Positions 6,095-62,354 are shown, counted from the first letter of the stretch. The stretch is 64,000 bases of DNA from an uncultured virus (IMG/VR IMGVR_UViG_3300002133_000084) (IMGVR_UViG_3300002133_000084), one strand, 5' to 3'. Translations and numbers: made by a program. The notes: generated by a model from the letters alone, not told the origin.

Positions 6095-6127
6095 TCGTTC
6101 GGGAAATGTATATAGGGAGATATTGGA

Positions 6128-26172: not shown

Positions 26173-28174
26173 GCATGAGTTCAAGCTATTTTTGGAGGGC
26201 GTTAAGACTCCCTGTGTATCTGCCCAGATATCCATAATGCAGGATATGCCGGCCACGGCCACACTTCAGATACCGGCAACCCCGCTATCCTTTAGGATTA
26301 TGCCGCGCACAGTTGTACATCTTTTCTGGAGGGACACAACGGGAGATGGAGGCTGGAGACTTCTTTTTGAGGGGGAGGTAGTAAAGAGAGGGTTTAGTTA
26401 CCGATCCTCTATGCGCACAACCACCATCATGTGCCAGGATATGACGATATATTGGCAGGGGGCCTATAGATATTTTTTCGATATAAGAAGCTCCGTCCCT
26501 GACTCCCATACGGTTATGCGCAAGTTTTACGCCCTAAATGTTAATTCAGACAAGGGAGCGCAGATACTCGATAACACTGTCGAGGTGGGCAACATATTAA
26601 TTGACGCCATCAATGAGGCTATTGATCCAATTGACAATAAGCAGGGATCACTGTTGGGTGGGATGAGATTCTTATTCCAAACAATGGAGGAAATAAATAC
26701 ATATTTCTATTCTGGCTCAAATCGTATGAAGCTGCGAAACAAGATAAAGGGCGTGCACAATAAGGTGGCCAATGAAATTTTACGCCAAATGACGAAGGGG
26801 GTGAAGCGAGACTTAGATCTTCTTCGCTCTGATGCTGCCACTTTGTGGGGTATGATCATGGCCCTCTTGGGGAAAACATATTACAGCTTTGTACCTTGCC
26901 CGTCTCCCGTGTATTTCAATTCCAAGGATGGAAGTGGCACCCCTAATGTAGACTGGAAGAATCTAAAGGATGGAATTGGCGGATTGGGATCCTCCCTGTT
27001 CATACCAGAGATCTTCTCTTCGCAGCCCCCGCGGTGCAATGTGTTCCTTCCTGCCGTGGTGGAATATTTCAATTTCACTGAGGATTTTAAGGCGATACCG
27101 ACGCGCACGATTGTTCGACAGCAGACGGAGGGCCTACCGACGGTTCACTATGCCCCGGTTGGACTAGAAAACAACATACGAAGCGATAGCGTAAAAGAGT
27201 TTATGCTGGACGAGGAGTTGCTTTTGGGCGTAAACCTCAACTCTTGGGAGCTATCATCCGCAGAATTAGCCGCACGCAAGGGCGCCTCCGATCCTCCGGC
27301 AAGTGGCGAGGAGAAGGAGGAAGTCGTGGGTACGCGAAGAGAGCAAGACTTTATCGTCAATCGAGTGATAAATTTTGCTCACCATCGCGCTCGCGCTGAG
27401 GCCAGATCTGGTAATGGCGGCGGCGAGTTTAATCCATTCCTTTGCGTAGGACTTCCATCAGCTGTAGTCGATCGATTGGGAGGGGTGATCGTTGGCGATC
27501 TAACTCAGGCCACTCACATTCTGGACTTTGCCAATGGAACCGCTGCAACCAACTTCACCATGGAGCGCGGGCGCTGGCTGCACTTTCCACATCCATCCGA
27601 TTCGACGCCAGACTATTTAAAGTGGGACAGTGAGGATGAGGGATTATTCGACACAAACTACCCCACTTGGTATGATCCATCCACTTTCTCTGATGAGTTT
27701 ATTGGCAAGAAGGTGTATTCGGAGATTTTCGGATATGGAGAAAGCCAGAATTATGGCGGCATACGAGAAGTAGATGAAGAAGGAAATCTAGAGTCCTTGG
27801 AGTCTGCATTAAAGAGAGTGTTGGGAGAGCACATTTCCAGTGGCGAAAGCGGTATAGATCACGCACTTAAATTTATGCATAGGGAAATTGCCACGGAATT
27901 TGAGACATTTCTCGCCCTTGGATCAGAGCCTAGCTCAGAGGCATTGCTCGAGGAGTTAAAGGAAGCTGAATTAAACAAAGCGTCTGTATGGGCACAGAAA
28001 AGAATAGATGTCACGTCAGAGCAGTGGCAAAACCCAGACGGGGCCGATCAGCCCATTAAGTGGAATGCGCGCGAGGAGGGCGAGGTATTAGGCCCGTTCT
28101 TACAGGAGCGCCAGCTGTGGGCCAAAAGTTATAATGCGGAGGTAAGTATTACAGCACATGCATTCTCGCCATAG
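26159..28174 (+). CDS. baseplate hub-like protein
   Basis: KLFLEGV...ATLQIP...LLFEGEV...CQD N-terminus; C-terminal FNPF-x-x-VG-x-P and THILD. Confidence 0.6.
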   Translation: MAARKHEFKLFLEGVKTPCVSAQISIMQDMPATATLQIPATPLSFRIMPRTVVHLFWRDTTGDGGWRLLFEGEVVKRGFSYRSSMRTTTIMCQDMTIYWQGAYRYFFDIRSSVPDSHTVMRKFYALNVNSDKGAQILDNTVEVGNILIDAINEAIDPIDNKQGSLLGGMRFLFQTMEEINTYFYSGSNRMKLRNKIKGVHNKVANEILRQMTKGVKRDLDLLRSDAATLWGMIMALLGKTYYSFVPCPSPVYFNSKDGSGTPNVDWKNLKDGIGGLGSSLFIPEIFSSQPPRCNVFLPAVVEYFNFTEDFKAIPTRTIVRQQTEGLPTVHYAPVGLENNIRSDSVKEFMLDEELLLGVNLNSWELSSAELAARKGASDPPASGEEKEEVVGTRREQDFIVNRVINFAHHRARAEARSGNGGGEFNPFLCVGLPSAVVDRLGGVIVGDLTQATHILDFANGTAATNFTMERGRWLHFPHPSDSTPDYLKWDSEDEGLFDTNYPTWYDPSTFSDEFIGKKVYSEIFGYGESQNYGGIREVDEEGNLESLESALKRVLGEHISSGESGIDHALKFMHREIATEFETFLALGSEPSSEALLEELKEAELNKASVWAQKRIDVTSEQWQNPDGADQPIKWNAREEGEVLGPFLQERQLWAKSYNAEVSITAHAFSP

Positions 28175-28865
28175 TCAAGAAGAGTTGTATTGGAAATGGA
28201 AGCAGTCGGATCGCAGTGAGGATCTGTCTGAGCTAATCCAGTCCTTTGATCCTATGATCAAAAATAAAGTATTCCAGCTTGGATCTACAACTGTGCCTAA
28301 TTCTGCCGTAGAAGCAGAGGCCAAGAAAGAGGCTATCCAGGCATTTAAAACATGGGACAGCGACAAAGCTGGATTGTCTACACATGTGGGGAATAGGCTG
28401 CAGAAGGTGGATCGATATGTAATGGATCGCCAGTCAGCTGGGCGCATGCCAGAGCAGCATATATTGCAGATGGGGCAATTTAGGGAGGCGGAGGATAGGC
28501 TTAAGGAAGAGAAGGGGCGCGATGCCACCATGGACGAGCTAGCCGATCACCTCAAGTGGACGCCGGGGCACGTATCCAAGATACGGCGCTCTTCGCAGGG
28601 ATCTGTAAATATATCTATCGATCCATCCCTAGAGGAAGTGAACCCCAATTATGGGGGTGATTTTGCCATGGACGTTTCAATGAAATACGTCTATAGGGAT
28701 CTGTCTCCGCAAGAGCAGAAAGTATTCGATCACACCTTTGGATGGAATGGGGAATCTGAGAAGAAGACAAATAAAGATATTGCCATGGCTATGGGGGTAT
28801 CTGAATCATTGGTGCGCAAGGTAAAGGGCAAGATTTATAATCAAATGAAACCTTTTGTAGGGTAA
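28158..28865 (+). CDS. sigma70-family (group 3-like) RNA polymerase sigma factor
   Basis: region 2 AIQAFKTWDSDKAGLSTH; region 3 GRDATMDELADHL; region 4 LSPQEQKVF...KDIAMAMGVSESLVR. Confidence 0.85.
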   Translation: MHSRHSQEELYWKWKQSDRSEDLSELIQSFDPMIKNKVFQLGSTTVPNSAVEAEAKKEAIQAFKTWDSDKAGLSTHVGNRLQKVDRYVMDRQSAGRMPEQHILQMGQFREAEDRLKEEKGRDATMDELADHLKWTPGHVSKIRRSSQGSVNISIDPSLEEVNPNYGGDFAMDVSMKYVYRDLSPQEQKVFDHTFGWNGESEKKTNKDIAMAMGVSESLVRKVKGKIYNQMKPFVG

Positions 28866-31073: not shown

Positions 31074-34000
31074 ATGAACGATATTGATTTTTTAATACAG
31101 AAAATACTAGAAGATAATCCGAGGGCTGAGGTGCGCCCAGGATCAGCGCAAAGAGACTTGCTTATCGTTCCGCACTCCAAATTGCTGGAGCCAGTGGAGG
31201 AAGAGCGATCCACTATTGCGCGCGCGCAGTCCATAGCGAATTATGCCACTATGACGGATGAGGAGATGGATGCACTGGCAGCCAACTTCTTCATCTATAG
31301 GGACGGTGGGGTAAATGCTCGAACACAGGTTAAGGTAGGATTCTCTTCTCCTACCTCTGTTGAGTTGAAGGCCGGCGACACATTCCAAAACTCCGATAGC
31401 ACCAAAGAGTATTCACTTGAGTCGGATTACTATATATCCTCCTCGTCTATGTCCAGCAATCTGGAGTCGGACGGACTGTACTATACCGCCCTTTTGGACG
31501 TGGTGGCAACATCACCTGGCGATGAGTATTCAGTTGATGCCGACGAGTTGATAGAGATGCCATTGGGGCCCGTCAGCCTATCGAGGGTGACAAATCCAAC
31601 GGCCTCTTCCTATGGCTGGCACAAGGAAACTAACGCCGAGCTGTTTGCGCGCATACCTGATTCTATATCTACGCGACAGATCTTAAATACGCCCGGCACA
31701 CGATCGCGATTAATAGAGCAGTTTAGGCATATACAGGAAATTTTCCTTGTTGGCCACGGCCACTCATTAATGAAGAGAGATGAAACTTTTGAGCACTCTT
31801 CAACGGGTGGAGCCTCCATCTTACCGGTATCCAATTTCTATGGCAAGCTCCGCGGCGACACTAATAATAGGAATAAGGCCTATCAGTTGGTTTCTACAAA
31901 AGTAGAGCCGGATATAGCTGATTTCGGTTTGGAGGTGAGTCAGCTTGATTACACGAAGATGTATCGAGTTAACGACTCATCCTCAGCGGCGCTTAGCACC
32001 AACGTTCTATTTGAGGATGACTTTACTCGCTCTGGTGAATTTGTCCCCGCCACAGCCTATTTGACACTGGACTCGGATGGGACGGCCGTCGTAGAAGTGG
32101 ATACGCCAGCCCTATTCAATATTGGTGATCTTGTCCGATTGATCGATGATGACACGGCTGAAGTGCAGCGCATCATACTCGATATATCAGAGAAGAATAT
32201 CACCTTTACTGATGTGGTGGATAACAATCTGGAAACAGCCCAAAACGCGCGCGTCGAACGTGTCCTGCGCGACGAAGATGTGGGCAATGAGTGGTTTGAA
32301 TCTGATCATACCCTTAATCTGGGCATAGAAGTAGATGGGCCACAGGCTACCGTTGACTCTGGAAAGCTGGTTCTAGGGAAGGCATCTTACGCTACGGACA
32401 ATACATTACATGGGGTATCTGACGCAGCTCTAGAGGACAGCATTGAAGAGGTTATTAAGACGGCCCTGATGAATGCCGGGTATAACCCATCCGATACGGC
32501 TGATGTAAAGACAGAGGTTGAGAACTTAACCTATATCGTCAATACGGAAACCACCGGTGATACGCTATTGGCTGCGGCCACCATTAATGTTACGTCCACC
32601 GCTGGATTTGATACCAGCGGCTTCGCCTACATAGATGGAACCAGATTTGATTATACGGGCGTAACGGGCACATCGTTCACTGGCTGTAGTGGTGGAGTGC
32701 CAGCCACCACGGCGCCCGTTGATGTAGAGCAGGGTATCATCCCATCCATTAAAGCCAATCAGGTTATCTCCGTGTCTCCTGTTGTGCAGCGCTACCTAGA
32801 GCAGCAAAATGGACTGCGCATCACTGCTACTATGAGCACCACTGACACTTCAGCTGAGGGTAAATTTTCCTACATACTAACGAGGAAGAAGAATACCAAC
32901 CCAGCCAGCTATTACTATGGCTTTGGCATGGCTTGGCGCATCTCAAAGGCGGATACAGGGACAACCACTACAACAACCGCTGTTACCGCGCTGGACGCCA
33001 CGGATGTTAATGTGGCATCAACTGCTGGATTCTCTTCATCTGGAGTGGCCATACTAGACGGAACACCCTTCTCGTATACTGGAATTACGGCCACCTCATT
33101 TACTGGATGTGTGGGCGTTGTGGCTACAACCAACCCAGTGAATGTGAATCCATCTTTGCCAAATGTTTATTTGGTGGATAATGGCGACTTGCCCAATAAT
33201 GCCAATGCATACCTGGCAAGGGCCACCACATTGATGAAGGCTAATACAGATTATTCAGTAGAGATCTTGATTACCCCTCCGACGCCCGGAGATTTAGTAG
33301 ATGAGTCATCTGCTGTTGAGATTCGCGTATGGGAAACATCTGGATCGCGTCCAGTTAGCCCCACCTTATCCTATGGCGCCTATGTCCCATCGTCTGCGCG
33401 CGGGGGATACGAGGAAGATGATATGTTTGGCATATCGGTATATGACTGCAATGGGGATCAATGGTATTACGACGATTTAAAAATTGAGTCCGTGCAGGCC
33501 ACGTATCCACACTACCTACTTCGATTCGATGCGGCTGCCTTCTCTGATAAATTTAAGGTGTCCGTAACCGGTAGGGCATGGGGTGAAGTGGAGGAAGTTC
33601 AGACGTATGGGATGGCAGTGAAGGTGTGGGACGATAGTTCGTCTGGCTGGGTTGATGTGGGCACGTACACCGGAACCTCTCTTGGAACAATTGAGACGGT
33701 TAGTGGATATGATGCGGCAGACTACTCTGATGTCAACGGGTATGTATACGTCATGGTTTCTGGGCAAAATCCCTGGGGAACAGTGCGGGATGCCCAGCTA
33801 GAAGTAGACTATGCCTCCATCTTTGATGATGGCATCACGGGGGTACATGTTGGCAATAAGGTGGATGCTTACATGCGATCCGTAGATCAGATACAGAGCG
33901 GATTTGTGGATATAAACTCAATTCAAGATATCGAGTATGTAAATGTTGCGCAGGGGTTTTCCTTACCCGTAGCATCCATTGACGCTGTGTTTCTGTTGGA

Positions 34001-34535
34001 CATCGATGGGGAGCCAATAGGGAACCCACTGGTAGAGGGGACGGATTATTCACTAACCATTGTGCGCCCCGAGATGCGCTTCTCTGCCTCTGAGCACAAT
34101 GCTCTGACTTTCCCGTCCGCTCGCGTGGGATCCAATGTTCGCGTGTACTATTCCTACTTCCAGTACATAAGCGCCATTCAGGATTTCATTGACAGTGAGG
34201 CTCAACGATTAACGGCAGCCGAAGTTTTAGCCAAGGCCTTTATTCCTGCCTACGTAGACTTTACAGTGCAAGCTGGCGGGTATGGTATATCCGATGATCA
34301 AATGGAAGATGCGATTGTCGAGTTTATAAATGGACTAGGCACAACATTGGAAGTATCGGACGTAACAACAGAGATAGCTACGCAGGGGGCAACTTCTATT
34401 GTATTGCCGCTGACGATATCTGTGGAAGTCCATTCTAACGATGGACTAAAGACGTCAAATTCAGTTACAAACTCTCTCACAGTAGAGGAAAATGTGCGCT
34501 ATATCGCTCGCGACATCAACGTTGTTAGAATTTAA
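31074..34535 (+). CDS. baseplate J-like wedge protein with large insertion
   Basis: RPGSAQRDLL, MDALAANFF-x-x-R, VTNP...ETNAEL; internal ~55-aa duplication (NV-x-STAGF...YTG-x-T-x-TSFTGC). Confidence 0.8.
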   Translation: MNDIDFLIQKILEDNPRAEVRPGSAQRDLLIVPHSKLLEPVEEERSTIARAQSIANYATMTDEEMDALAANFFIYRDGGVNARTQVKVGFSSPTSVELKAGDTFQNSDSTKEYSLESDYYISSSSMSSNLESDGLYYTALLDVVATSPGDEYSVDADELIEMPLGPVSLSRVTNPTASSYGWHKETNAELFARIPDSISTRQILNTPGTRSRLIEQFRHIQEIFLVGHGHSLMKRDETFEHSSTGGASILPVSNFYGKLRGDTNNRNKAYQLVSTKVEPDIADFGLEVSQLDYTKMYRVNDSSSAALSTNVLFEDDFTRSGEFVPATAYLTLDSDGTAVVEVDTPALFNIGDLVRLIDDDTAEVQRIILDISEKNITFTDVVDNNLETAQNARVERVLRDEDVGNEWFESDHTLNLGIEVDGPQATVDSGKLVLGKASYATDNTLHGVSDAALEDSIEEVIKTALMNAGYNPSDTADVKTEVENLTYIVNTETTGDTLLAAATINVTSTAGFDTSGFAYIDGTRFDYTGVTGTSFTGCSGGVPATTAPVDVEQGIIPSIKANQVISVSPVVQRYLEQQNGLRITATMSTTDTSAEGKFSYILTRKKNTNPASYYYGFGMAWRISKADTGTTTTTTAVTALDATDVNVASTAGFSSSGVAILDGTPFSYTGITATSFTGCVGVVATTNPVNVNPSLPNVYLVDNGDLPNNANAYLARATTLMKANTDYSVEILITPPTPGDLVDESSAVEIRVWETSGSRPVSPTLSYGAYVPSSARGGYEEDDMFGISVYDCNGDQWYYDDLKIESVQATYPHYLLRFDAAAFSDKFKVSVTGRAWGEVEEVQTYGMAVKVWDDSSSGWVDVGTYTGTSLGTIETVSGYDAADYSDVNGYVYVMVSGQNPWGTVRDAQLEVDYASIFDDGITGVHVGNKVDAYMRSVDQIQSGFVDINSIQDIEYVNVAQGFSLPVASIDAVFLLDIDGEPIGNPLVEGTDYSLTIVRPEMRFSASEHNALTFPSARVGSNVRVYYSYFQYISAIQDFIDSEAQRLTAAEVLAKAFIPAYVDFTVQAGGYGISDDQMEDAIVEFINGLGTTLEVSDVTTEIATQGATSIVLPLTISVEVHSNDGLKTSNSVTNSLTVEENVRYIARDINVVRI

Positions 34536-34546
34536 GGACAATAAAC

Positions 34547-34807
34547 ATGGATAAGGTTGCAGGGTTTTTTTCTAAAATTAAGAAGATGATGGCTGGTAGT
34601 GGGGCCCAACCAATGGGCCATGCTCAGCTATTAGCCAAATCTAAAGCGGCGAGGGGAGTAGCTGATTACAAGGCCCCATCCGTTGGTAGTAGAAAGGCTG
34701 GATTTTATCCCACTGGAAAGGAATTGAAGCGCCAGAGCTTACGCCAAGAAAATCCAGGGATGGCCATACCAAGTGAAAATGCACTAAGTGGATGGAAGCG
34801 CAGGTAA
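34547..34807 (+). CDS. small basic protein with minimal leader
   Basis: MDKVA then amphipathic GFFSKIKKMMAG. Confidence 0.6.
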   Translation: MDKVAGFFSKIKKMMAGSGAQPMGHAQLLAKSKAARGVADYKAPSVGSRKAGFYPTGKELKRQSLRQENPGMAIPSENALSGWKRR

Positions 34808-35646
34808 TGTTCTTTGAGTCTTTCTCGCGCGAGATGAATAAACTTGCCGCCGAATTTGGGCATAGGACATCTGAGGCCGGGTTTCACTCTATGATTCAGT
34901 CTGGAAAGATTGTATCTGGACTAGAGGCCGCTTTAACAGATAAGCTGGATACATTCGAGAGTGGATATGTTGCAGGGCAGCGCGAACCAATAAAGGCATT
35001 AAACCTCTCGTCGGAAGAGTTGTTGCTATTGGACGTGACAACGGAATCTGATTCACCCATTGCGCGTAGCGATGTATTAAGATCGATCGCTGAAGAGAGG
35101 GGGGTATCAGAGCAGCAGGTAGCCTTTTCCCATTTGAAGAGTCGCTATAGGGAGGCCTTGGATAGATTGCGCGGAATACATCTTGAGCACGGTGGAGAGC
35201 ACGCAGATATAGCTAGGGCGAAAAGCTATGGAATTAGCAAACTTACACCCTATATATTCGCCAATAAGGGCGGATTAATGCCAACTGATCGTGGTTATGG
35301 GGAATTTGGCATTTTATTTAATTCCAAGAAGTTCTCCAACTCTGGAAAATGGAATACGGTGCCCAACGAACACATATCTCTCCCTGATTACAAGAATAGA
35401 AAATTGCCCCACGTACCACTGGGCAGGGCAACCTTCGTTGTACCCGATAATAGATTGGATGAGATTCAGGCAATGTATCCAGAGAGAAGGATAGTTCCAG
35501 AGTCCAGTGTGGGCGATCGGATCTTATCAGAAGAGTCCCCCTTAAGTGCCAGGTATTGGCTTAGGGCCAAGAAGACGGTTGGTAGATTGCTGTCTGGATC
35601 GGGTATTGGCAGTGAATACTTTGATCGAAAGATGAAGGCTGAGTAA
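34807..35646 (+). CDS. leader-tagged protein, possible ADP-ribosyltransferase-like fold
   Basis: ATG at 34807 gives MFFESFSREMNKLA; H-x-T...I-x-x-S-G-x-I-x-S start, YIF, YG-x-x-x-I-x-F, NEH. Confidence 0.5.
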   Translation: MFFESFSREMNKLAAEFGHRTSEAGFHSMIQSGKIVSGLEAALTDKLDTFESGYVAGQREPIKALNLSSEELLLLDVTTESDSPIARSDVLRSIAEERGVSEQQVAFSHLKSRYREALDRLRGIHLEHGGEHADIARAKSYGISKLTPYIFANKGGLMPTDRGYGEFGILFNSKKFSNSGKWNTVPNEHISLPDYKNRKLPHVPLGRATFVVPDNRLDEIQAMYPERRIVPESSVGDRILSEESPLSARYWLRAKKTVGRLLSGSGIGSEYFDRKMKAE

Positions 35647-37046
35647 TGTTTTTCGATGCATTTAAATTAGAGCTCGAAAAACTGGCCACGGAATTGCGTC
35701 CACACCAGGAAGAGGCTATTAGAGCTCTATCTAAGTCTGATGCACTTTTACTGTATCATGGGCTGGGATCCGGAAAGACGCTCACGTCCCTATCAGCGGC
35801 CGATCGCCTCGGATTGCCCCTCACTATGGTGGGGCCAGCGGCATTAAAACACAATCTCCCCAAGGAAAAGGAAAAGCATAGCATAAAAGCCGATGCCAAC
35901 TTCTACACCTACAACAAGCCCCCCGAGCAGGGCGGCGGCATTGTGGCCTTTGATGAGGCGCATCGCATGGGGCAAATATCATCTAAAAGATCTCGCCTTG
36001 TAGATATACTGGAAGGCGATAAGAAGCTCTTGATGACGGGTACGCCTATACGCAATAGGCCATCTGAGTTGATACCCATCATGCGCGGCCTGAACATAGA
36101 CGTTCCCAGGGACGTTAAGGCCTTTAACGATAAGTACATTGAAGAAATTGAAGAGGATCCAGGATTCTTCGCCCGAGTATTTAGGGATGTAAAGCCGGGC
36201 GTTAAGTTTAAGGGAAAGAATCTTAAAGAACTAGGAGACTTACTCACTGGCAAGGTGCACTATCATGCCACTGGAACCGATGGATTCCCCTCCGTAGTAG
36301 AAGAGGAGATCTTAGTGGACATGACAGATAAGCAGCAAAGTGCACACGATATGGCCATGAAGAATAATCCATCCCTTGCGTATAAGATTAGAAATGGAAT
36401 AGCCCCATCGAAGACGGAAAGCACCCAGCTCAATGCCTTTCTAACGGCTTCGAGGCAAATATCCAATATACCGGGTAGCTACAATCTTTCAGCTACAAGT
36501 GAAGATGCGCCCAAGATACAGCGCGCGGCCGATGAGGTGATAAAGCACCGTAGAGATAATCCCAATTATCGCGGCGTAACCTATTCAAACTTCATCGATC
36601 ACGGCATTCGCCCAATGGCCGATGAGCTTGGGCGCCGCGGTGTTTCGTATGGCGAATTTACCGGATCACTAACCGACAAAGAAAAGGCCCGCATCATAAG
36701 TTCGTTTAATAGCGGTGAAATAGAACATCTATTGATATCTGGCGCGGGCGCGGAGGGCTTAGATCTCAAGGGTGTGCGCCTTATGCAGCTAATGGAGCCC
36801 CACTGGAATGAGGCTGTATTAGATCAGGCGGCCGGCAGGGCAATTCGCATGGGATCCCATGATCACCTGCCGGAAGATGAGCGATCTGTAACTGTGCAAA
36901 ACCTAATAGCTCGCCCCAAAGAGACTGGATTGTTATTCAAGAGTCGCGATAAGGCTACCGATGAATACCTGCGCGATAGGGCGAGCGAAAAACAAGAGCT
37001 GAACAATCAATTCTTAGACGTATTGAGACGGGTGGGATCTAAATAA
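35646..37046 (+). CDS. leader-tagged SF2 (SNF2/NPH-I-like) helicase
   Basis: MFFDAFKLELEKLA leader; HGLGSGKT, DEAH, TGTP, AEGLDL, QAAGRAIR. Confidence 0.9.
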   Translation: MFFDAFKLELEKLATELRPHQEEAIRALSKSDALLLYHGLGSGKTLTSLSAADRLGLPLTMVGPAALKHNLPKEKEKHSIKADANFYTYNKPPEQGGGIVAFDEAHRMGQISSKRSRLVDILEGDKKLLMTGTPIRNRPSELIPIMRGLNIDVPRDVKAFNDKYIEEIEEDPGFFARVFRDVKPGVKFKGKNLKELGDLLTGKVHYHATGTDGFPSVVEEEILVDMTDKQQSAHDMAMKNNPSLAYKIRNGIAPSKTESTQLNAFLTASRQISNIPGSYNLSATSEDAPKIQRAADEVIKHRRDNPNYRGVTYSNFIDHGIRPMADELGRRGVSYGEFTGSLTDKEKARIISSFNSGEIEHLLISGAGAEGLDLKGVRLMQLMEPHWNEAVLDQAAGRAIRMGSHDHLPEDERSVTVQNLIARPKETGLLFKSRDKATDEYLRDRASEKQELNNQFLDVLRRVGSK

Positions 37047-37738
37047 TGATTAATGAAAAATTCTTCAATGGTATGCAGAAGTTAGCGTTTAACCTCAGAG
37101 ATGCCAGTAAGGTGAGTCGAGTTTTTAAGGCTAGGCAGATTCCTCAAAAGAATCTACATAAAGATATGATTGGGGAGTTCGTTGGATACAACAAAGATGT
37201 AAAGGGCTTTGCTGCAGCCACCGGCCAGGATGTCAATCAGATAATGAATACGCAAAAGGGAATTGGAGTATCCCCAGGAAAAGTGAGAGCCCCCAAGAAG
37301 GGTGATGCCCTTAGATTTTTTAGAGGAACCGCATCTAAGATGAATGGAGTAGATTTAGGCCCAAAGGTAGAATTCACTGGACGTCAAAGAAGGATGCTAG
37401 ATGGAGTGACGAAAGGGCATGAAGTTGATGAAACAATAGTAAAAAACAAAGCAGAATTTATGCCACTTGGACATTTGTCTCCGGACGTGATCTTGAGGGA
37501 GCATAATAAGATCGTCACAATGCCGGAAGAATTTGAGCCAGTTAGGAGATTCCTGCGAAAGGTTAGGAATACTCTCGGAGAGGCGCCAGTCGCCGAGGCC
37601 CATATGAACAATGCCTCTGGGCCTAAGGGTTTCACATATGGTAGAGGGCAAAGGCTTAGTAGGCATGCCAGAAAAAGAATGACAGATATTTTAGAGAGAA
37701 AAAATAACGAGATGATTGCAGCTCAGGCTGCGGAATAA
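37046..37738 (+). CDS. leader-tagged basic protein of unknown function
   Basis: MINEKFFNGMQKLA leader; GHEVDE, GH and REH clusters. Confidence 0.7.
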   Translation: MINEKFFNGMQKLAFNLRDASKVSRVFKARQIPQKNLHKDMIGEFVGYNKDVKGFAAATGQDVNQIMNTQKGIGVSPGKVRAPKKGDALRFFRGTASKMNGVDLGPKVEFTGRQRRMLDGVTKGHEVDETIVKNKAEFMPLGHLSPDVILREHNKIVTMPEEFEPVRRFLRKVRNTLGEAPVAEAHMNNASGPKGFTYGRGQRLSRHARKRMTDILERKNNEMIAAQAAE

Positions 37739-37755
37739 TATGTGGGATCTGAATA

Positions 37756-37905
37756 ATGGCTGACGTTAAAAAGCTGTGGAACTTTATATCTGACGCATGG
37801 CTCCTTATGGATCGAGCCGACAGGCGATCCATCGAGCAGCTGTGGGCTGGATATCAGGAAATAATTGCACAGCTATCTATTAATCTCAATACGGGTGGGA
37901 TCTAA
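37756..37905 (+). pseudogene. truncated duplicate of the 5' end of gene 38121 (49 aa)
   Basis: first 45 codons match 38121-38255 with 4 synonymous differences, then run into a copy of 37028-37053. Confidence 0.85.
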
Positions 37906-37908
37906 ATA

Positions 37909-38121
37909 ATGATTAAAGAAAAATTTATGGATGGAATTGCCAAGATGGCGTCGGCTGCGGGCAATTATGAAAAAGAATTAAGCGTAGCGGCCTGGAATGA
38001 GTTTACTGGTAGAGGTGGGGAGAGTAGGCGAGACGTCATGAGGCGGCACGGGATGCATGTGTTGTTGGGTGGGAAGCCCACTGACTTTATTAGCCTACTT
38101 ATAGATGGAAGAATTAGGTAA
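37909..38121 (+). CDS. leader-tagged short protein
   Basis: MIKEKFMDGIAKMA leader; upstream DNA duplicates 37028-37053. Confidence 0.6.
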   Translation: MIKEKFMDGIAKMASAAGNYEKELSVAAWNEFTGRGGESRRDVMRRHGMHVLLGGKPTDFISLLIDGRIR

Positions 38122-40619
38122 TGGCTGACGTTAAAAAGCTGTGGAACTTTATATCTGACGCATGGCTCCTTATGGATCGAGCCGACAGGCGATCCATCGA
38201 GCAGTTATGGGCCGGATATCAGGAAATAATTGCACAGCTATCTATTAATCTCAACAGGGAGGCCATTGATCCCTTAGTAGAATATGCCGTCGATAAAAAG
38301 ATTCTTCTATGGGAGAACTTCGACTGCACGGGCGGCGGACTTATATTTTCCGCTGGATCCAATGTGGCATCCATACCCCTATTACAGGATAGGATTGAAA
38401 ATCCAAATACAACCCTTACGGAGGGTGTCGACTACACCATAGTAGAAGGCAATTTCATATTCGCCTCGGCTCCTAATGCTATACTGTGGGCCCCTGAAGT
38501 ATACCAATATAATGATCGCGTCCATGAGGTTCTGGGTGATCCTGTTGACGTCCACCTTGACAGGGTGGGGTGGAATGCAGAGGATGCGCTGCCGGCACTA
38601 CAATGCTTATGGTATACCTACATACACGGCCCAACGCAGCGCAATATACGCGCATCGATCAATGCTCTCATGGGGCTGCCTTATGCCAAGCATGCCGGGC
38701 AAGTGGTATCCATTACCAGTGACACGATCAAGGTTCGATATGGGGATTCTGGTACTGTTTATCCGTCGGGTACGGGGCGCGCAATAGCCGGCACAGAGAT
38801 TGACTCATCCTTCACTGGATTGGTAGATCATAGCCTACGCCTTGTAATAGGATCGGATGTGTCGTCCATACTGGCAGACGATTACTATTTAACTACCGGT
38901 GTCAATGAGGGCGAATACATAGTCCGAGAAAAGCATAATGTCGCATCGTCTACCGTCATATCAGAATTGACATCTGGGGCAACCGATGCCAACGGCCGCT
39001 GGTTTACCGGCGTCGGCGGAGACTGGGCCCAGGTGGATGCTGGCGACTTGATCAATATCACTGCGCCAAGCTCTATTGCTGGATATTACCAGGTGGAGGC
39101 AGTAGACTCCTCGGGCGCGCGCGCGTGGCTTAGGGATAGGGTTCAAGGCGGATTATCTGGCATTACCTTCACTGTGGAACGCGAGCCCTGGATTCGTCTT
39201 GATTCAAAGCTTCCCGATACATCATCTCCCGTAGGACGCATCGTTCGCCCCAATAAGAGCTGGCCATTTGACGTGTGGCAGGGAAGCCTCTTAGTGGATT
39301 CGGCTGGATCAGAGCATATAATATGGAATAACGGTAGCAACTCTATTCGTATTAGCTCTGATGTGTCTCCCGGCGTTTTTCGTATTCGTCCCAGATTCGC
39401 TGAAGATTCTTCGGAGGCATTTGACAGGATAGCACAAGCTGCGTCTGCTCATAGCGTAGATGACTATGTCTATAGATTCGATCCACTATTGGATGGCGTG
39501 CGCCTGTCTGATTGGCGAACAGATGAACGTTGGCAGCGCTGGCAGCCTGGTATTCTCGCCTTAAATGCTAATGCCAATGGCACTACTAGCGTTCAAGTAA
39601 GCTCTGTTTCTGGAGTGTTTAAAAACGGCGTCTACGATATGATGGCCGAAGGGGAGGAGACTATCCGAGTCAGCGTCTCCTCTGTGAGTCCACCCAATAC
39701 TGTCGTACTAGATAAGGCTATACCGTCCACTTATACCACACTGAAGATGGCGCGCTTAGTGCCGGCGCAATTATCAGTTGAGGGACTAAAGGGGTTCTAT
39801 GTTATTGCCGATCCATCAACGGCGGATACGGATGGGGCTGGATTATCAGTAGAAGATTTATCAGCCACATTTAATGATGGATCTGTTTTACCTGGGGATC
39901 ACGTTCGAATGATCACCTCAGATGGAACAACATATAGCTCGGCTATATCTACCGTAGTTGACGATGAGCACTTGACGGTTTCCAGCGCGTTGCCGGCTGG
40001 GCAGTCGGGTGCATACTATCAAATTGTGCGCCCCTATACCACATCAGAATATGCAACGCTCATTGTGGATGCTACGGCGTATGTGCAGGAGAATTTTGAC
40101 GAATCGCTCATCTCCTCGATGTTATCTCGTTTTCTGCCTAATCACATTAAGCATTTCATTACATCCTCCTCGGTAGAGATCCTGGAGATCCTCTCTTCTA
40201 TTATAGAGGATGAGAGGATACTGGAGTTTATAGCAGTTCGTCCCATATCTGATACATCACGCTCGGATGAAGATGATAATGTGGATGATGATTTCCTGGC
40301 TGGGCCCTCAGTATATGAATGGGTGGCCGAATACTTTACCGATTATCAAGTTATTGTACCTACGGAAATTATTACGGACGAGTACTCACTGGATGGATCG
40401 CTAGCCGATGAAGATGATAACGTAGATGTAGACTTCGTGGCCTGGCCATATAACGCCCAGGTGTGGGCCACAGACGAATCCGAGATAATACTATTAACAG
40501 AGGAAACATATTATTTCCCAGTTCAGCCCCCCGCAGCTGGATCGGTAGCCGATGGATCGCTTGCGGTGGACGGTGAATTTTTTGCAGATGGTAGCTTTAC
40601 AGAGTGGGAAGACTTCTAG
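38121..40619 (+). CDS. putative baseplate wedge/structural protein
   Basis: 832 aa; HGPT-x-x-N-I...LMGLP and RFLPNH motifs; acidic C-terminal repeat DEDDNVD. Confidence 0.6.
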   Translation: MADVKKLWNFISDAWLLMDRADRRSIEQLWAGYQEIIAQLSINLNREAIDPLVEYAVDKKILLWENFDCTGGGLIFSAGSNVASIPLLQDRIENPNTTLTEGVDYTIVEGNFIFASAPNAILWAPEVYQYNDRVHEVLGDPVDVHLDRVGWNAEDALPALQCLWYTYIHGPTQRNIRASINALMGLPYAKHAGQVVSITSDTIKVRYGDSGTVYPSGTGRAIAGTEIDSSFTGLVDHSLRLVIGSDVSSILADDYYLTTGVNEGEYIVREKHNVASSTVISELTSGATDANGRWFTGVGGDWAQVDAGDLINITAPSSIAGYYQVEAVDSSGARAWLRDRVQGGLSGITFTVEREPWIRLDSKLPDTSSPVGRIVRPNKSWPFDVWQGSLLVDSAGSEHIIWNNGSNSIRISSDVSPGVFRIRPRFAEDSSEAFDRIAQAASAHSVDDYVYRFDPLLDGVRLSDWRTDERWQRWQPGILALNANANGTTSVQVSSVSGVFKNGVYDMMAEGEETIRVSVSSVSPPNTVVLDKAIPSTYTTLKMARLVPAQLSVEGLKGFYVIADPSTADTDGAGLSVEDLSATFNDGSVLPGDHVRMITSDGTTYSSAISTVVDDEHLTVSSALPAGQSGAYYQIVRPYTTSEYATLIVDATAYVQENFDESLISSMLSRFLPNHIKHFITSSSVEILEILSSIIEDERILEFIAVRPISDTSRSDEDDNVDDDFLAGPSVYEWVAEYFTDYQVIVPTEIITDEYSLDGSLADEDDNVDVDFVAWPYNAQVWATDESEIILLTEETYYFPVQPPAAGSVADGSLAVDGEFFADGSFTEWEDF

Positions 40620-40673
40620 TAGCATCTTTTTCTTGAAAACACACTCGAGAATCTACTTTCTTTAAGTATTAAC

Positions 40674-40692
40674 ATACCCTGAAATTGGGTAT
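40674..40692. promoter_or_regulatory. palindrome copy 6
   Basis: ATACCC TGAAATT GGGTAT in intergenic region. Confidence 0.7.
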
Positions 40693-40733
40693 AAAATACT
40701 GAATTTTAGGAAATTGCAAAAAATTGAGGAATT

Positions 40734-41318
40734 ATGTCCAACGCTGATCGCGATGCGTTAATAGAAAAAATGCACTCATATGGGCGCTCCGTCGGGGCTC
40801 TTTATGGGGAAACATGCATCGAGCGCTACCCGGGGGATGCCAATATAGTTGATCCCTACAAAGTTTCCTGCGATCCCATTGAAGTGTCGAAGTGGGAGCC
40901 AAATATAATCGTAGACAATTCCGGACTAATCCTATCCGCCCTGTGTAAGGGTGAGGGTGGATACTCTGGACTTCAGTATGTCGTAATTGGCTCAGGCAAC
41001 GTGTCGTGGGATACATCTGGCGTTCCGTCCCCCACGGTGGGACAGACACAGATGGTAAACGAGCTGGGGCGCGTAGCCGCCTCTATTGTTTTCCTCGATG
41101 GATCTAATAACCCCACGGCTAGCGTTACGAATAAGCTAGAGATCAGCGGCACGTTCGGATCCGGTGTCGCAGAGGGGGCCGACTGGCGCGAGTGGGGCAT
41201 TGTCGGAGGAAACGCAACAGGCACAGCCAATACGGGACTACTGTTCGATTACTCTACGCACAGCGCCATCCCAAAAGACACAGAAACAATCATTCGCCGC
41301 GTCCGCATAATCTTCTAG
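40734..41318 (+). CDS. baseplate/tail-collar protein
   Basis: NIIVD-x-x-G...IGSG...ELGR...EA-x-x-x-x-WREWGI pattern typical of fibre-attachment proteins. Confidence 0.6.
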   Translation: MSNADRDALIEKMHSYGRSVGALYGETCIERYPGDANIVDPYKVSCDPIEVSKWEPNIIVDNSGLILSALCKGEGGYSGLQYVVIGSGNVSWDTSGVPSPTVGQTQMVNELGRVAASIVFLDGSNNPTASVTNKLEISGTFGSGVAEGADWREWGIVGGNATGTANTGLLFDYSTHSAIPKDTETIIRRVRIIF

Positions 41319-41329
41319 GAATGTCATAG

Positions 41330-43732
41330 ATGTCTACTGATAAATTCACAAATATAGCAAAGTCGCCAGTCTATACGCCCGAGAAGCGATCGGATGCACT
41401 GTGGACGCAATACGAAGGCAAGCACGTCCACGGCGGATTTCTTACGCGCGCGCAACAGATTTCAGAGCATCGTGATGCAGAGATCTTACGCACGCTATCC
41501 CCTTCGGGATTCTTAGCCGTCGATCGATCAGTTCTGGCTCATGGTGATGCAAAAATAAAAAGCGGCACCATGGTGACGGGCGTCACGGCCAATGATTCGG
41601 ACTTGATTCGCATCTATGCTCCCAATGAGCAATATAAGGCATTGGTTAATGGGTGGATGATAACGCTCCATAACATACAAGCCAACTCGGCGCCCTCCGC
41701 CTTTGGCACAGATTATCTTGCCATAAAGTTAAATCCATCCCCACTGGCACTTGGGAGATTTGACTTGGTGTTTTTGGAGGTGTGGCGCGAGGAGGTGGTT
41801 GACACTGACACGCTATATCCTCATGGAAATGTACAGACTGGCACCACGGCTATAACTAACGACATCAAGGACTCCCGTGAGGCTCAGGGCACAGTAAACT
41901 CTGCCATCCAGATCCGATCGCGCATTCGCGTAGTAGACGGAGTTGATTATGAAACATATCCGTTTGGCATTGATCATACGGCCGTAGTTAAGGCGCAGGG
42001 CGGCGCTGGCTCAGTTTCCACATATACTTTTGCCAATGCGGGCGCCTCTACAGGAGACTATGGACTCTGGGTTGCTGGCGACGGAGACGACACTTCTCGC
42101 ACAGATCTTAATAGCGTCGACGGGTACTCTTACGCTATTCCAATTGCCATTGTTCGCAGGCGCAACTCGACAGCCTACAATCTCACGACTAATACGAATG
42201 GCGCACTAAATCAAATATCGGACGGCGTATCCGATCGCCCTGATTCATTATATAAGGATCAAGTATATATATCGGATGTTTTGGACATTCGACTCCATGC
42301 CAATCTGAATGCACGTCAATATTCCGACATAATGCGCGATTGGAAGAATGCCATCCTTGGATCAACTGCTCGCATGGTATTTGGGCAGAATGATCAGGCT
42401 GGACACTCGGATACTTGGGGAACTGAAGTTATTAGGGTTGAGGGAATATCGAATGCATCTGATACTGGAGTTGATGAAACGTTAGCGCCAGACGCCGCAC
42501 AGCGATTATTCTCGGATGAGAGCGCCACGCAGACATCTGTTGGCTTTATCACCAACGGCTCAGATGACACAGATCTTTCCCAGGTGGTAAGCTACACCTT
42601 CTCCTCTAAGCTGATAACTCTAGACGCTACTCAGTTTACGGTGGCTGGGGCTCTCATTGGAACGTCTACCCCAACATTAAAATGGGTGTCCGATGGGACT
42701 ACAGTGGTGTTGACGGGGGCGTGGACTGGCCTTGGAACTGCATCCGCTACAGCCACCATAAACGTTGGTGATGGAAACTATCAGGCCTCTGGACAATTTT
42801 ATATTCAATTTGATTCAACTCTACCCTTAGCTCAGGGCCTTAAAGAAGTTCCATCCTCCATACATAAAGCGACGTTCAACGGGACAGACATGTATGTAGG
42901 AACTACAGTTGCCAGTCTCAATCTCACTAATCTAGCTTCTACTGGAGCTATGGGAATCTCGTTCGAGTATCGCACGCGCGCAGTAACGGAGATTGCCAAG
43001 AGGGAGTCCATTACGGCAAATGGAAATGGAGTGGCGAGATCCTCTGGATATGTGTTGGCCACCTCTGCCGGAGTCGCCTCTGGTGGAATTGTTACTGGGC
43101 TATCCGCATCCCAAGCCATCGACGTTGTATATGCAATGACTCCTGGAACTTCGGATAAGATTTGGATCTACTATTCATTTATACCCCCACAGTCTCCTGC
43201 ACTACCATCTACACTTTCAGTTGAGATGCTATATGTGGAAGACAGAATTATTTCATCCAATCTTGGAACTGGGGGCGGCACAGATGGGCAGCCATTCTTT
43301 AATCCTCTATTGCACATCCCAGAGAATAGCGCCATCACAAAAGACTCAGATCTAAAAAATACTTCCGATTTGATTATATCTGACTTTGGCGGCAACTGGG
43401 GATTACTGGATATTCCTGTACTATTTCAGACTCCATGGGAATTGGTGTTTCAGTTTTCCTCTCCCGGGACTGATTCCGAGGGACGCCCATATTATGCCGA
43501 TTCAGATGTAGACTTTATAGCCATGGGGCAAAGTCTTTCCACTGCACAGTGGCACAGGACGGCATTGTTTGGAGTTGCTCGCGTAACTTCCGGATCTGGT
43601 ATTTTTGCCACGGGAACATTGGTGGCAGTTTGTTTTTCAGAGACACTTAATGCCGTTAATAATCGAGCGGGGGTTCAGTCCTCATCGAATTTCGCCGTCT
43701 CTGTATTTCCTATTAAGGAAATGTCCCACTAA
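41330..43732 (+). CDS. baseplate/tail fibre structural protein
   Basis: 800 aa, Thr/Ser/Gly-rich; R-x-DLVFLEVW, YAIPIA-x-V-x-RRN, RPD motifs. Confidence 0.6.
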   Translation: MSTDKFTNIAKSPVYTPEKRSDALWTQYEGKHVHGGFLTRAQQISEHRDAEILRTLSPSGFLAVDRSVLAHGDAKIKSGTMVTGVTANDSDLIRIYAPNEQYKALVNGWMITLHNIQANSAPSAFGTDYLAIKLNPSPLALGRFDLVFLEVWREEVVDTDTLYPHGNVQTGTTAITNDIKDSREAQGTVNSAIQIRSRIRVVDGVDYETYPFGIDHTAVVKAQGGAGSVSTYTFANAGASTGDYGLWVAGDGDDTSRTDLNSVDGYSYAIPIAIVRRRNSTAYNLTTNTNGALNQISDGVSDRPDSLYKDQVYISDVLDIRLHANLNARQYSDIMRDWKNAILGSTARMVFGQNDQAGHSDTWGTEVIRVEGISNASDTGVDETLAPDAAQRLFSDESATQTSVGFITNGSDDTDLSQVVSYTFSSKLITLDATQFTVAGALIGTSTPTLKWVSDGTTVVLTGAWTGLGTASATATINVGDGNYQASGQFYIQFDSTLPLAQGLKEVPSSIHKATFNGTDMYVGTTVASLNLTNLASTGAMGISFEYRTRAVTEIAKRESITANGNGVARSSGYVLATSAGVASGGIVTGLSASQAIDVVYAMTPGTSDKIWIYYSFIPPQSPALPSTLSVEMLYVEDRIISSNLGTGGGTDGQPFFNPLLHIPENSAITKDSDLKNTSDLIISDFGGNWGLLDIPVLFQTPWELVFQFSSPGTDSEGRPYYADSDVDFIAMGQSLSTAQWHRTALFGVARVTSGSGIFATGTLVAVCFSETLNAVNNRAGVQSSSNFAVSVFPIKEMSH

Positions 43733-54773: not shown

Positions 54774-55682
54774 ATGACTCAGGTAATTCAAGCCGATCTG
54801 TTCGATTCTTCCATGGCTTGCCATGCATCCGAATTGCGCTCCCTCATCAAAGAATTTCTGAGGTGGTGCGAGACGGCCGGCAAAGCCAGAAATACAGTTG
54901 AAGTATATTACTACGATCTTAAAGCGTTTGTTCGTTTCTTTGAAGAGCACAACATCCCAATGGGCGATGAGCTTCTTAGTAGCTACCTTCACTCACTGGT
55001 AACACTCAAGCCGGCCACTCGTCGCCGGCGCTACTACTCCCTTTCTAAATTGTTTACTTGGTGCATTGAGCAGGGGATCACCAAAGACAACCCCCTCAAG
55101 AGGCACCAGCCACCAGTCGTCATTGATGGTGGCCCGCGCCCCATACCGGAAGCAGATCTCCATAGGCTAACAGCTGCCATAGAAGAATTGTGCAACGATC
55201 GATATAAGCTGATGTACCACTTGCTGCTCGATACCGGCATGCGCATCAATGAGGCGGTGTCTATTCGGCTTGATGATATATCTTGGGCGGAGGGGGAAGA
55301 GTCCATCCTTATACGGGGCAAGGGGCGGCGGCGGCGACTGCTACCACTGAGCCCTGAGATGAGATCCTTTAATCTCCTCAGAGAATACATAGGAACTAGG
55401 GTGGACGGAGCTCTATTTGAGGGGCGCAGTGGTGGACACCTCGTCAGAGAGGCGCCCACCGTATACCTGCGAAGAATACTATCCACCCTCAACATGAACT
55501 ACACAATGCACCAATTAAGGCATACTGCCGCCACAAATTGGATCAACAGGGGCGGCATGTCGACGCTGGTAGTGCAAGATCTACTGGGGCACTCCTCCTC
55601 CATCTACACCGAACGCTACGTCCAGGTGAGGGAATGGAAGAAGAGAGCCGATCTTAAGGCTTATGCCATGGCCAATGGCTAA
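54774..55682 (+). CDS. XerC/D-like tyrosine recombinase
   Basis: TGMRINE, RGKG, HQLRH, LLGH, TERY catalytic set; SAM-like N-terminus. Confidence 0.9.
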   Translation: MTQVIQADLFDSSMACHASELRSLIKEFLRWCETAGKARNTVEVYYYDLKAFVRFFEEHNIPMGDELLSSYLHSLVTLKPATRRRRYYSLSKLFTWCIEQGITKDNPLKRHQPPVVIDGGPRPIPEADLHRLTAAIEELCNDRYKLMYHLLLDTGMRINEAVSIRLDDISWAEGEESILIRGKGRRRRLLPLSPEMRSFNLLREYIGTRVDGALFEGRSGGHLVREAPTVYLRRILSTLNMNYTMHQLRHTAATNWINRGGMSTLVVQDLLGHSSSIYTERYVQVREWKKRADLKAYAMANG

Positions 55683-61753: not shown

Positions 61754-61754
61754 C

Positions 61755-61973
61755 CTAATCGTAGGTTATAGAGGCCTCTATCTGCGCCCCCAATTCATGC
61801 TGGTGCACATCTACTGATATGCTGGGATTTTCACTTTCGTGGCTCCAACTATAACACTTGAACTCCCCGCCGAAATCCTCGTGCGGCCCATCGAATTCCG
61901 ATAGTTTCATCCCTACGGATTCTGCCAGTATGGAGGCAATTCTTATAACCTTCTCTTTGTTTGGCGCGGGCAT
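61755..61973 (-). CDS. hypothetical protein
   Basis: 72 aa, abuts neighbouring genes. Confidence 0.5.
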   Translation of the reverse strand: MPAPNKEKVIRIASILAESVGMKLSEFDGPHEDFGGEFKCYSWSHESENPSISVDVHQHELGAQIEASITYD

Positions 61974-62354
61974 CTATATCTCCTCAATGTTAATACGGAA
62001 CTTGCGCCCCGTGGTGCGCGATGTCATGATACGCCCATCTTCTATGATCGACGCATCTCCACCGTCGAAACCATAATAAATCAGTGGCTCCACTTTATTG
62101 CCGCGATCGTCTTCTCGGTAGTGGTATTTCTCTCCCACTTCAAATCGATCATTTTCTTCATTGGGCTCGCACTGCATAAAGTCCAGGCCAAATATCCCAG
62201 ACTCTATGCCCCTATCGGAGAGGACGTCGTCCATGACATCCTCTCCCTCTAGCTCCACCTCGACTATCACCTCATCTTCGTCGTCGTAACACTCCCTAAA
62301 TTGGACGATTCTTATATGTGGATTACTCGTCGTCTCCAGCTCGTCGTGTTCCAT
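61974..62354 (-). CDS. acidic hypothetical protein
   Basis: 126 aa, abuts rtcB. Confidence 0.55.
   Translation of the reverse strand: MEHDELETTSNPHIRIVQFRECYDDEDEVIVEVELEGEDVMDDVLSDRGIESGIFGLDFMQCEPNEENDRFEVGEKYHYREDDRGNKVEPLIYYGFDGGDASIIEDGRIMTSRTTGRKFRINIEEI

Follow-up and report, generated by a model that had tools for sequence, protein, structure and literature searches.

How does a phage come to carry, between two larger genes, a set of small genes bordered by copies of their neighbours' ends and beginnings, and what are the similar N-termini of these genes for? The question is raised by a stretch of 64,000 nucleotides (nt) from an uncultured virus (IMG/VR IMGVR_UViG_3300002133_000084; hereafter the window), in which the gene of a SNF2-family helicase of 466 residues (aa) is followed by a cassette for a 230-aa protein, a truncated 49-aa open reading frame (ORF), a cassette for a 70-aa protein and the gene of an 832-aa protein. 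Taken as a whole, the region is probably best explained as an array of leader-tagged cassettes that was built by recombination, in which the short N-terminal leader is a conserved peptide tag.

A first-pass annotation had described three nested repeats at 37028-38255, and all three sit where it placed them, above chance. The 17-mer GTGGGATCT(A/G)AATAATG was said to lie on both sides of the 230-aa cassette and was found at a third site as well (37032-37048, 37742-37758 and 37895-37911); with up to three mismatches allowed, there are three matches in the 64 kb against a mean of 0.30 in shuffled sequences, and none of 100 shuffles reached three. Positions 37756-37890 copy the first 45 codons of the 832-aa gene (38121-38255), letter by letter as described, with four letter differences in three codons (CTG in the truncated copy and TTA in the full gene at codon 29, GCT and GCC at codon 31, AAT and AAC at codon 45), all of which are synonymous. 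This repeat extends from the common TAATG (37754) to 37889/37894 at 96-98% identity, and in the self-comparison that the annotation had proposed, by BLAST of the window against itself, it is the longest repeat of the whole window (136 nt, 97.8%). The probability that four of four random substitutions in the 45 codons are synonymous is 0.002 for any substitution and 0.0085 for transitions only; it is statistically credible, from a comparison of the codons, that the two copies diverged under purifying selection. The variant copy may have come from another phage, or it may have been kept by selection on the 49-aa product. Finally, 37891-37916 is identical to 37028-37053 (26/26), and the likeness of this element, called junction J, extends to 61 nt at 80% identity into both leaders (MINEKFFNGMQKLA and MIKEKFMDGIAKMA). 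The odd join of the truncated copy (hereafter the stub) to J reads CTCAAT followed directly by ACGGGTGGG, and only microhomology links the two sides.

Junction J shows no promoter, terminator or RNA-fold signal above shuffles. Promoter-like sites number 25 in the window against 20.8 in shuffles and terminator-like sites 12 against 9.9; the junctions contain no terminator-like site and one chance-level promoter-like match (37023-37050, 9 of 12), and the two J copies fold with z-scores of 0.61 and -0.27. The context of the related junction J' at the end of the 230-aa cassette folds somewhat better (z -2.34), via a hairpin at the 3' end of that cassette which is absent at the other junctions.

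The stretch is present in 18 sequencing runs from eight studies, and eight of the runs hold at least half of its sampled words. Four runs from four studies were compared in detail, all as graph contigs and not as reads; parts of the stretch are uncovered in two of them, X8 and X12, and these gaps were given no interpretation. In X8 (record 31) the cassettes stand in reversed order, the 3' part of the 70-aa cassette being followed by the stub, TACGGGTGGGATCTAC and the start of the 230-aa cassette. This stub carries the CTG, GCT and AAT letters of the window's truncated copy, with one further difference that is also synonymous, though it stands behind the other cassette, and it is therefore an allele lineage of its own that travels with the junction. 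The record reads ...NTGGIY and stop, exactly as in P0021, a 50-aa variant of the 49-aa product that is found on three contigs; the longest of them, at 10,416 nt, is exactly as long as the contigs on which a 230-aa variant and an 832-aa gene are listed. In X12 (record 13) the helicase end is joined straight to the 70-aa leader, skipping 863 nt, where 26 letters fit both sides and 93 letters lie beyond. X12 also contains a piece of the 230-aa cassette, so that its joint was dropped as a candidate single-cassette parent, and it is probably the same reversed isomer. At the neighbouring junction, gain or loss of a cassette through the leader is seen directly: a helicase on three contigs (P0018) starts MEAQVMFFESFSREMNKLA and continues with TELRPHQ..., that is, it has the leader of the 279-aa cassette which precedes the helicase in the window (gene 34792, so named after an alternative start) without the body of that cassette.

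The annotation had explained the array by two cassettes inserted through duplication of the junction and leader. Separable leader-tagged units bounded by a duplicated junction stand, and a simple history in two steps does not, because the existence of the reversed-order isomer means that two-step insertion is not the whole story and that the array is being permuted. It had also held that the helicase once abutted the 832-aa gene. The only trace of such an ancestral junction is J', where the last helicase codons and stop run straight into an ATG of the 832-aa type; a helicase directly abutting the 832-aa gene, or a relative with the empty junction, was found neither among strains and relatives nor in searches of viral, metagenome and genome contigs, where retrievable close relatives were lacking. 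As a single-protein query the helicase matched no viral contig, and as an alignment (A2) it found 78 loci, none of which has a homologue of the 832-aa protein downstream of the helicase (a weak piece lies about 7 kb upstream in L031). No relatives of the 832-aa protein were found by a single-protein scan of viral contigs, nor by alignment A1 in metagenome, viral and genome contigs. A distant homologue of the 230-aa cassette (28% identity) lies about 950 nt after the helicase in two of the loci (L019 and L020).

In the mechanism we propose, the unit is made up of J, a short leader for the N-terminus, the body of the cassette and, as a copy, codons 1-45 of the 832-aa gene. An illegitimate join would once have fused codon 45 to the helicase-end junction, giving the truncated 49-aa ORF that would now serve as a linker. 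Each cassette thus has direct repeats on both sides, to its left the 26-61 nt of J plus leader and to its right the 135 nt of the 45-codon stub, at which homologous recombination could delete, duplicate or move cassettes. In the window, the helicase is followed by J with the 230-aa cassette, J' and the stub, then by J with the 70-aa cassette, and finally by the full 832-aa gene; in the other isomer it is followed by J with the 70-aa cassette and the stub, then by J with the 230-aa cassette and, further on, the 832-aa gene. The two natural isomers would exist because the cassettes are flanked by two kinds of direct repeat open to homologous recombination: an exchange between the two J copies may excise the 230-aa unit as a circle, and its re-entry through the stub would give the reversed order. 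Since the join of CTCAAT to ACGGGTGGG is common to both isomers and has only microhomology, a single origin with homologous exchange afterwards requires less than the same accident happening twice. Exchange in the array is best explained by general homologous recombination.

The leader itself appears, from comparisons of sequences, to be a conserved peptide tag and not only a scar, and to span a wide clade of large aquatic phages. At least ten tagged genes and one orphan leader lie within the window. A regular expression made from five tags of the row picks out one more, where gene 4173-4973 starts, whereas shuffled six-frame residues give a mean of 0.02 matches. The leaders of the helicase and the 279-aa cassette have 13 aligned residues in common, with DNA that differs at many synonymous positions. 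By a pattern parse, a peptide before the helicase core is readable in 84 of 119 listed homologues, and many of these peptides are tag-like by eye (MGKFFKIA, MDKALHVFNKYA and FWxGFEKRA, for example). When a hidden Markov model of 58 helicase leaders from other phages was applied to the N-termini of 424 window ORFs, five of the six tagged ORFs were in the top ten (rank 2 for the helicase, 7 for the 70-aa, 8 for the 230-aa and 9 for the 279-aa cassette, and 10 for gene 4173), with the 86-aa gene at the head of the row outside the top 15.

Sharing of the tag was counted in 51 non-redundant loci (L015 was left out of 52) from the 78 IMG/VR loci, with 1017 ORFs on contigs of about 7-210 kb, many above 120 kb. 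Internal segments served as the control, a comparison of own locus with other loci being unclean as tags look alike across phages. At a score of at least 32, the helicase tag occurs at the N-termini of other ORFs 22 times against 0 in the internal control, in 13 of the 51 loci; at a score of at least 28, there are 29 matches against 3, in 16 loci (Fisher p ~1e-6), 26 of the 29 being on the helicase strand and 10 within 100 nt of the helicase. Tags match within a phage and differ between phages. In two loci (L007 and L009) no direct-repeat family ranks above that of the leader-coding starts, which has six copies in each. In the cultured cyanophage PA-SR01, ..MEHFANF stands before the helicase core and neighbouring genes begin MKHFANF.. 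and MRKSANFAS... No published description of the tag of this clade was found in literature searches, which were not aimed at proving absence.

An artefact of assembly, in which two strains with one cassette each between the helicase and the 832-aa gene were stitched through common sequences, is very improbable and largely refuted. The contigs do break at repeat edges, and the two stubs share 86 identical bases, more than the graph word. The join of codon 45 to J, however, cannot come from merging two single-cassette strains, and graph words derive from reads; this argues against an artefact. The annotation had raised the same concern, and the junctions are indeed carried by graph contigs of other studies: the join is present in contigs of both X1 and X8, and products that bear it are recorded on five contigs (the exact 49-aa product) and three contigs (the 50-aa variant). 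In X1, one contig (record 1, 5282 nt) links the helicase to the stub without a break, by way of J, the 230-aa cassette and J', and another (record 3, 37860-38148, 0 differences) links the end of the stub to the first part of the 832-aa gene, by way of J and the 70-aa cassette. The sole continuation of the helicase end is the 230-aa cassette, and that of the joint of stub and J is the 70-aa cassette; because these links are unique and the depths similar (6.9-9.3), no linear path other than the order in the window should use each X1 piece exactly once. Quite improbable, too, is a site-specific insertion, in which the unit starting at ACGGGTGGGATC would be a mobile cassette's defined end, or the place where a nuclease or recombinase cuts, and the junctions would be products of this activity instead of one chance illegitimate join with later homologous exchange. 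It would account for two left partners that meet the same right-hand breakpoint, namely codon 45 of the 832-aa gene and about codon 439 of the helicase in P0019, a truncated helicase on one contig that ends ...KATGGI and appears to jump to ACGGGTGGGATCTAA as in the 49-aa ORF; moreover, the 230-aa cassette has the 17-mer on either side, in the manner of a target duplication, and other parts of the window encode a LAGLIDADG intein endonuclease and a tyrosine recombinase. P0019, however, has an extra 2-residue indel nearby and may be a poor assembly or an AC-microhomology deletion, J has none of the fold or promoter and terminator signals looked for, and PHROGs and Pfam recognise no nuclease gene within the cassettes. 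The junction motif occurs three times in the window and in no related locus, and its five 17-mer matches in IMG/VR are at unrelated loci, none of which encodes any of ten window proteins, and were taken as chance. Several points nevertheless weigh against the recombination-built array as we read it. A strain with a single cassette or an empty junction was not seen, so that the order of events is a reconstruction; the junction of the reversed isomer is slightly different (TCTACTAATG versus TCTAAATAATG); the apparently identical right-hand break of P0019 could indicate a site-specific process over plain homologous recombination; no raw or long read, nor any single contig of the compared runs, spans the whole duplicated arrangement; and phasing over the 86 bases that are identical in the two stubs depends on the graph argument and one catalogued long contig.

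Two further explanations concern what the parts do. That the 49/50-aa ORF is functional and kept by selection, as a free copy of the conserved N-terminal docking segment of the 832-aa protein or as an upstream frame that delivers ribosomes to the next cassette, we regard as unlikely. It would suit the purely synonymous differences, including the extra one in X8, and the fact that in the reversed isomer the stop of the ORF overlaps the next ATG as TAATG, as genes also do at four of the seven junctions from 34547 to 38121; the N-terminus is also the best conserved part of the 832-aa family. Synonymous-only changes, however, are equally expected if full-length genes of two lineages diverged before joining; the changes are few in total, and none of the 18 runs is an RNA run. 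A leader without any function as a peptide, left when inserted genes merely captured the translation start of a neighbour (the stop-start overlap and the first codons), seems improbable to us, even though leaders coincide with recombination junctions and body-less orphan leaders exist (6128-6208 in the window and 9235 in L009). The protein motif is kept while the DNA differs, as in the helicase and 279-aa leaders with their several synonymous codon differences; homologues as distant as about 26-55% identity still have it ahead of the helicase core; it is found on homologues of the 279-aa cassette in other phages; it is specific to N-termini; and it is modelled as an amphipathic-looking helix (residues 2-14).

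Some observations on leaders elsewhere stand by themselves. The window has a second cluster of tagged genes near the head genes (Table 1), where the orphan leader 6128-6208 is a 26-aa ORF, MFDSAFSSELEKCAGLLD..., with little beyond the long form of the tag that is also present at 2040 and 3482. In the same cluster a further duplication scar repeats 4920-4956 at 4987-5023 (37 nt, 97%), and an 86-aa ORF at 5046-5306 duplicates, at 43% identity (E 4e-20), residues 164-252 encoded by the tagged gene 4173-4973. In L009 (9235-9296), shortly ahead of a 225-aa ORF, an in-frame TGA comes after the leader MNKAQYIFEK, at a position where its paralogue has Ile (ATA); either a tagged gene has suffered a nonsense mutation here, or the codon points to recoding. 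The helicase of PA-SR01 (L085 8575-10371, annotated as 598 aa) has an N-terminal extension of about 140 residues with two RRxFLKN motifs (MNRRNFLKN.. and ..SRRQFLKNAA..), which resemble twin-arginine signal cores and lie upstream of the ..MEHFANF tag and the helicase core.

With regard to the tagged products, the helicase has the SNF2 ATPase and C-terminal domains (PF00176, 55.9 bits with a cut-off of 24.9; PF00271, 55.5 with 23.5; PF04851, 31.7 with 22.5) and 770 homologues at E 0.001 or better. Its closest cultured relatives are in the unclassified phages Arash and PA-SR01, and it matches the helicase part of long phage helicase/methylase profiles (positions 691-1138 of the 1881 of phrog_62, and phrog_11801). 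Scans against PHROGs and Pfam gave nothing for the 86-, 279-, 230-, 49-, 70- and 832-aa products, and the 230-aa protein had no usable match in the Atlas. For the 279-aa protein, a word-index search found only itself, and 33 remote relatives were found otherwise, many of which start with tags of the same kind; one protein (P0170, 1210 aa) fuses the tag, the helicase and a domain like that of gene 34792. Most of the longer relatives among P0142-P0164 (about 470-510 aa) have an extra N-terminal region with the consensus GSMPL..PG.VD.D and no Pfam match, which we take to resemble the motif of Pol-beta-type nucleotidyltransferases.

The 279-aa protein is, according to its structure model, like an ADP-ribosyltransferase (ART), though not a proven member of that family. 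The model, built from 25 sequences, has a pLDDT of 85 and a pTM of 0.76 and shows the tag as helical (residues 2-14). Exhaustive structural alignment by VIA-align matched it to Tpt1 (Z 7.6, root-mean-square deviation 3.8, 98 residues aligned) and DarT1 (Z 7.4, 3.7, 136), then to DarT (Z 6.5, 6.0 and 5.5) and Rhs ART toxins (5.2 and 4.9), and most of the top 22 rows are, by title, NAD-using proteins of the ART fold. In an alignment of the 25 sequences (A3), Y164, G165, S179 and E188 are invariant and G18, H19 and T21 nearly so, a pattern that is compatible with catalytic residues of the H-Y-E type. Against an ART-like protein, Foldseek found no match of the model in the PDB at E 0.001 or better, the ART-like matches of Z 5-7.6 stay below Z 8, the tool's level for a clear match, and the Atlas leads (DarT, PARP, Arr and Tox-ART-HYD1) are all below the Atlas bar.

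What the tag does may be suggested by analogy: like the capsid targeting sequence of T4, it may bring the helicase, the ART-like protein and the small basic proteins into the virion, to be delivered together with the DNA, a proposal that could as easily prove wrong as right. It is made because the row lies in the late structural region and its small tagged proteins are basic, and because SNF2 helicases and ART-like enzymes are typical of effectors thought to enter with phage DNA (PMC5512222), P1 DarB has an N-terminal capsid signal (PMC9024508), the internal proteins of T4 are diverse and have only a targeting sequence in common (PMC3012670, PMC9026906), and a helicase homologue of Arash (gp217, 34.5% identical) was detected in virions by mass spectrometry (PMC10585845). 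Some facts weigh against such loading. The virion proteome of Arash comprises 116 proteins, and its authors warn that abundant enzymes may be carried over (PMC10585845). No prohead protease was recognised among the window proteins, and the tags, by eye, end K-[LM]-A followed by varied residues, with no consistent L/I-x-E of the T4 type.

The closest analogues of the array are the T-even internal-protein locus and the modular shuffling mediated by PeSLs. Recombination through the conserved leader and regulatory sequence is said, in work of Repoila et al. from 1994, to drive swaps at the T-even locus. The T4 head protease cleaves at the motif L/I-x-E. This motif is partly given in PMC9026906. 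As here, the T4 and T-even internal proteins (IPI, IPII, IPIII and Alt) are unrelated, mostly basic, dispensable-looking proteins with only a short N-terminal tag in common; the set includes an ART-like enzyme, which T4 Alt is, and the locus varies between close relatives (PMC3012670, PMC9026906). On the other hand, the present phage is not T4-like, its tag has another sequence without a consistent L/I-x-E, no head protease was identified, and an SNF2 helicase is among the proteins that bear the tag; in the present locus the exchange has left a direct record, in a gene start duplicated over 45 codons and in two natural isomers, and packaging is proposed by analogy. PeSLs are described by Arbiol et al. 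(2010; PMC2839356) as short repeats flanking non-essential genes in hyperplastic regions of T4-type phages, and recombination between such repeats leads to insertions, deletions and replacements among close relatives, as seen here in X8/P0021, X12 and P0018. Exchange between nearby PeSLs can release circles (PMC2839356), which in our case are a proposal. PeSLs consist of an intergenic promoter and a stem-loop terminator, whereas the repeats here are coding (gene end, stop-start overlap, leader and gene start).

P1 DarB is, according to PMC9024508, likewise a protein containing an SWI2/SNF2-type helicase that is carried in the capsid by means of a signal at its N-terminus and delivered with the DNA. 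It is, however, a 250-kDa methylase-helicase fusion, whereas the present helicase stands alone with 466 aa and no methylase domain, and its tag sequence is unrelated as far as seen. Among the polyvalent proteins, the SWI2/SNF2 ATPase and the ART are hub effector domains beside virion genes (Iyer et al., 2017; PMC5512222); here they are separate ORFs with their own starts and tags, joined by stop-start overlaps, and the fused form occurs elsewhere (P0170). The array also resembles integron arrays in its promoterless same-strand cassettes bounded by repeats, whose order and content vary among close relatives, and in a plausible circular intermediate, but it has no attC-like folded site and no adjacent integron integrase; the only integrase-like gene of the window (54774-55682) is about 17 kb off, and nothing ties it to the array. 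New here are the clade outside T4, the link to a helicase, and recombination recorded by scars and isomers in natural populations.

The source is a divergent large phage. The DNA of 34500-41400 has no match in INPHARED (50,697 phage records), proteins identical to window products are on record from a contig of 152,839 nt, and the runs that contain the stretch are marine or aquatic metagenomes; the best explanation is that the array sits in the late structural-gene row of an uncultured marine phage of roughly 150 kb (Table 1). Downstream of the 832-aa gene are baseplate- and fibre-like genes. The capsid protein has only a weak match, to phrog_2522 (5e-08), and no T4-like head genes were found in the window. 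The three short tagged proteins have isoelectric points (pI) of 9.7-10.7 and the two larger ones of 7.3-7.9, amid acidic structural proteins (4.3-4.8). A word-index search gave four relatives of the 832-aa protein at 33-49% identity, and since its N-terminus is conserved in all four, 38121 is the true start of the gene. The start of the 279-aa cassette is probably the ATG at 34807 in the TAATG overlap, rather than 34792.

Table 1. Features of the tagged row and of the second tagged cluster (positions in the window).
Feature	Position	Strand	pI	Remarks
Second tagged cluster	2040-6208	+		near head genes; 2040-2282, 3482-3862, 4173-4973, 5287-5802, 5795-6094
1153-aa acidic protein	31074-34535	same as row	4.3	structural region
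86-aa basic tagged protein	34547-34807	+	10.7	first in tagged row; tag FFSKIKKMMA
279-aa tagged cassette	34807-35646	+	7.9	tag MFFESFSREMNKLA; ART-like fold by model (Tpt1/DarT-like)
SNF2-family helicase, 466 aa	35646-37046	+	7.3	tag MFFDAFKLELEKLA directly ahead of LRPHQ core start
Junction J, copy 1	37028-37053	+		last helicase codons, stop, TAATG, first leader codons of 230-aa cassette
230-aa basic tagged cassette	37046-37738	+	10.3	no known family
Junction J'	37742-37758	+		copy of helicase 3' end (GTG GGA TCT GAA TAA), in frame after 230-aa cassette stop, into ATG of truncated copy
49-aa truncated ORF	37756-37905	+	4.9	832-aa gene codons 1-45 (37756-37890) joined out of frame to J; ends TGGI and stop
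Junction J, copy 2	37891-37916	+		exact copy of 37028-37053
70-aa basic tagged cassette	37909-38121	+	9.7	abuts 832-aa gene via TAATG
832-aa acidic protein	38121-40619	+	4.3	structural region; codons 1-45 (38121-38255) are the source of the truncated copy

Some neighbouring features may be noted separately. In the part of the 832-aa gene that encodes the C-terminal region (40251-40576), direct repeats about 141 nt apart encode acidic segments of the DEDDNVD type. A sigma-70 family factor gene (28158-28865, regions 3 and 4 above the Pfam cut-off) lies within the structural-gene row. The head-region gene 6579-9746 encodes a 1055-aa protein with an intein (Hint and intein-splicing matches and a LAGLIDADG homing-endonuclease domain at about residues 170-550), the sole family match of the host protein being phrog_36001. 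Genes at 54774-55682 and 60680-63752 are tyrosine integrase-like (phrog_1, 5.8e-45), ATP-dependent DNA ligase-like and RtcB RNA ligase (phrog_1075, 1.9e-82), an unusual combination for a phage of about 150 kb.

Finally, proteins injected by phages include those of counter-defence, such as T4 IPI and P1 DarB. To our knowledge, almost nothing is known outside T4 and P1 of how such proteins are chosen for packaging or how their repertoire changes. The scars, the two natural isomers and the strain without the neighbouring cassette let the mechanism of exchange be followed at base resolution. It is a tentative and rather doubtful idea that, in this clade of large aquatic phages outside T4 (120-230 kb), one cargo tag around a virion-delivered SNF2 helicase may load changeable effectors, and that tag-coding DNA and duplicated gene-start stubs would make up an integron-like array without integrase, which cassettes leave as circles through one repeat and re-enter through the other, reshuffling the order and content of the injected cargo in natural populations. 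The tag provides a simple sequence handle for listing candidate cargo (the SNF2 helicase, the ART-like enzyme and small basic proteins) in a large uncultured clade. As two cultured relatives carry the helicase and PA-SR01 is clearly tagged, the idea of packaging is directly testable. If the tag works, it could also be used to load such phages with foreign proteins.

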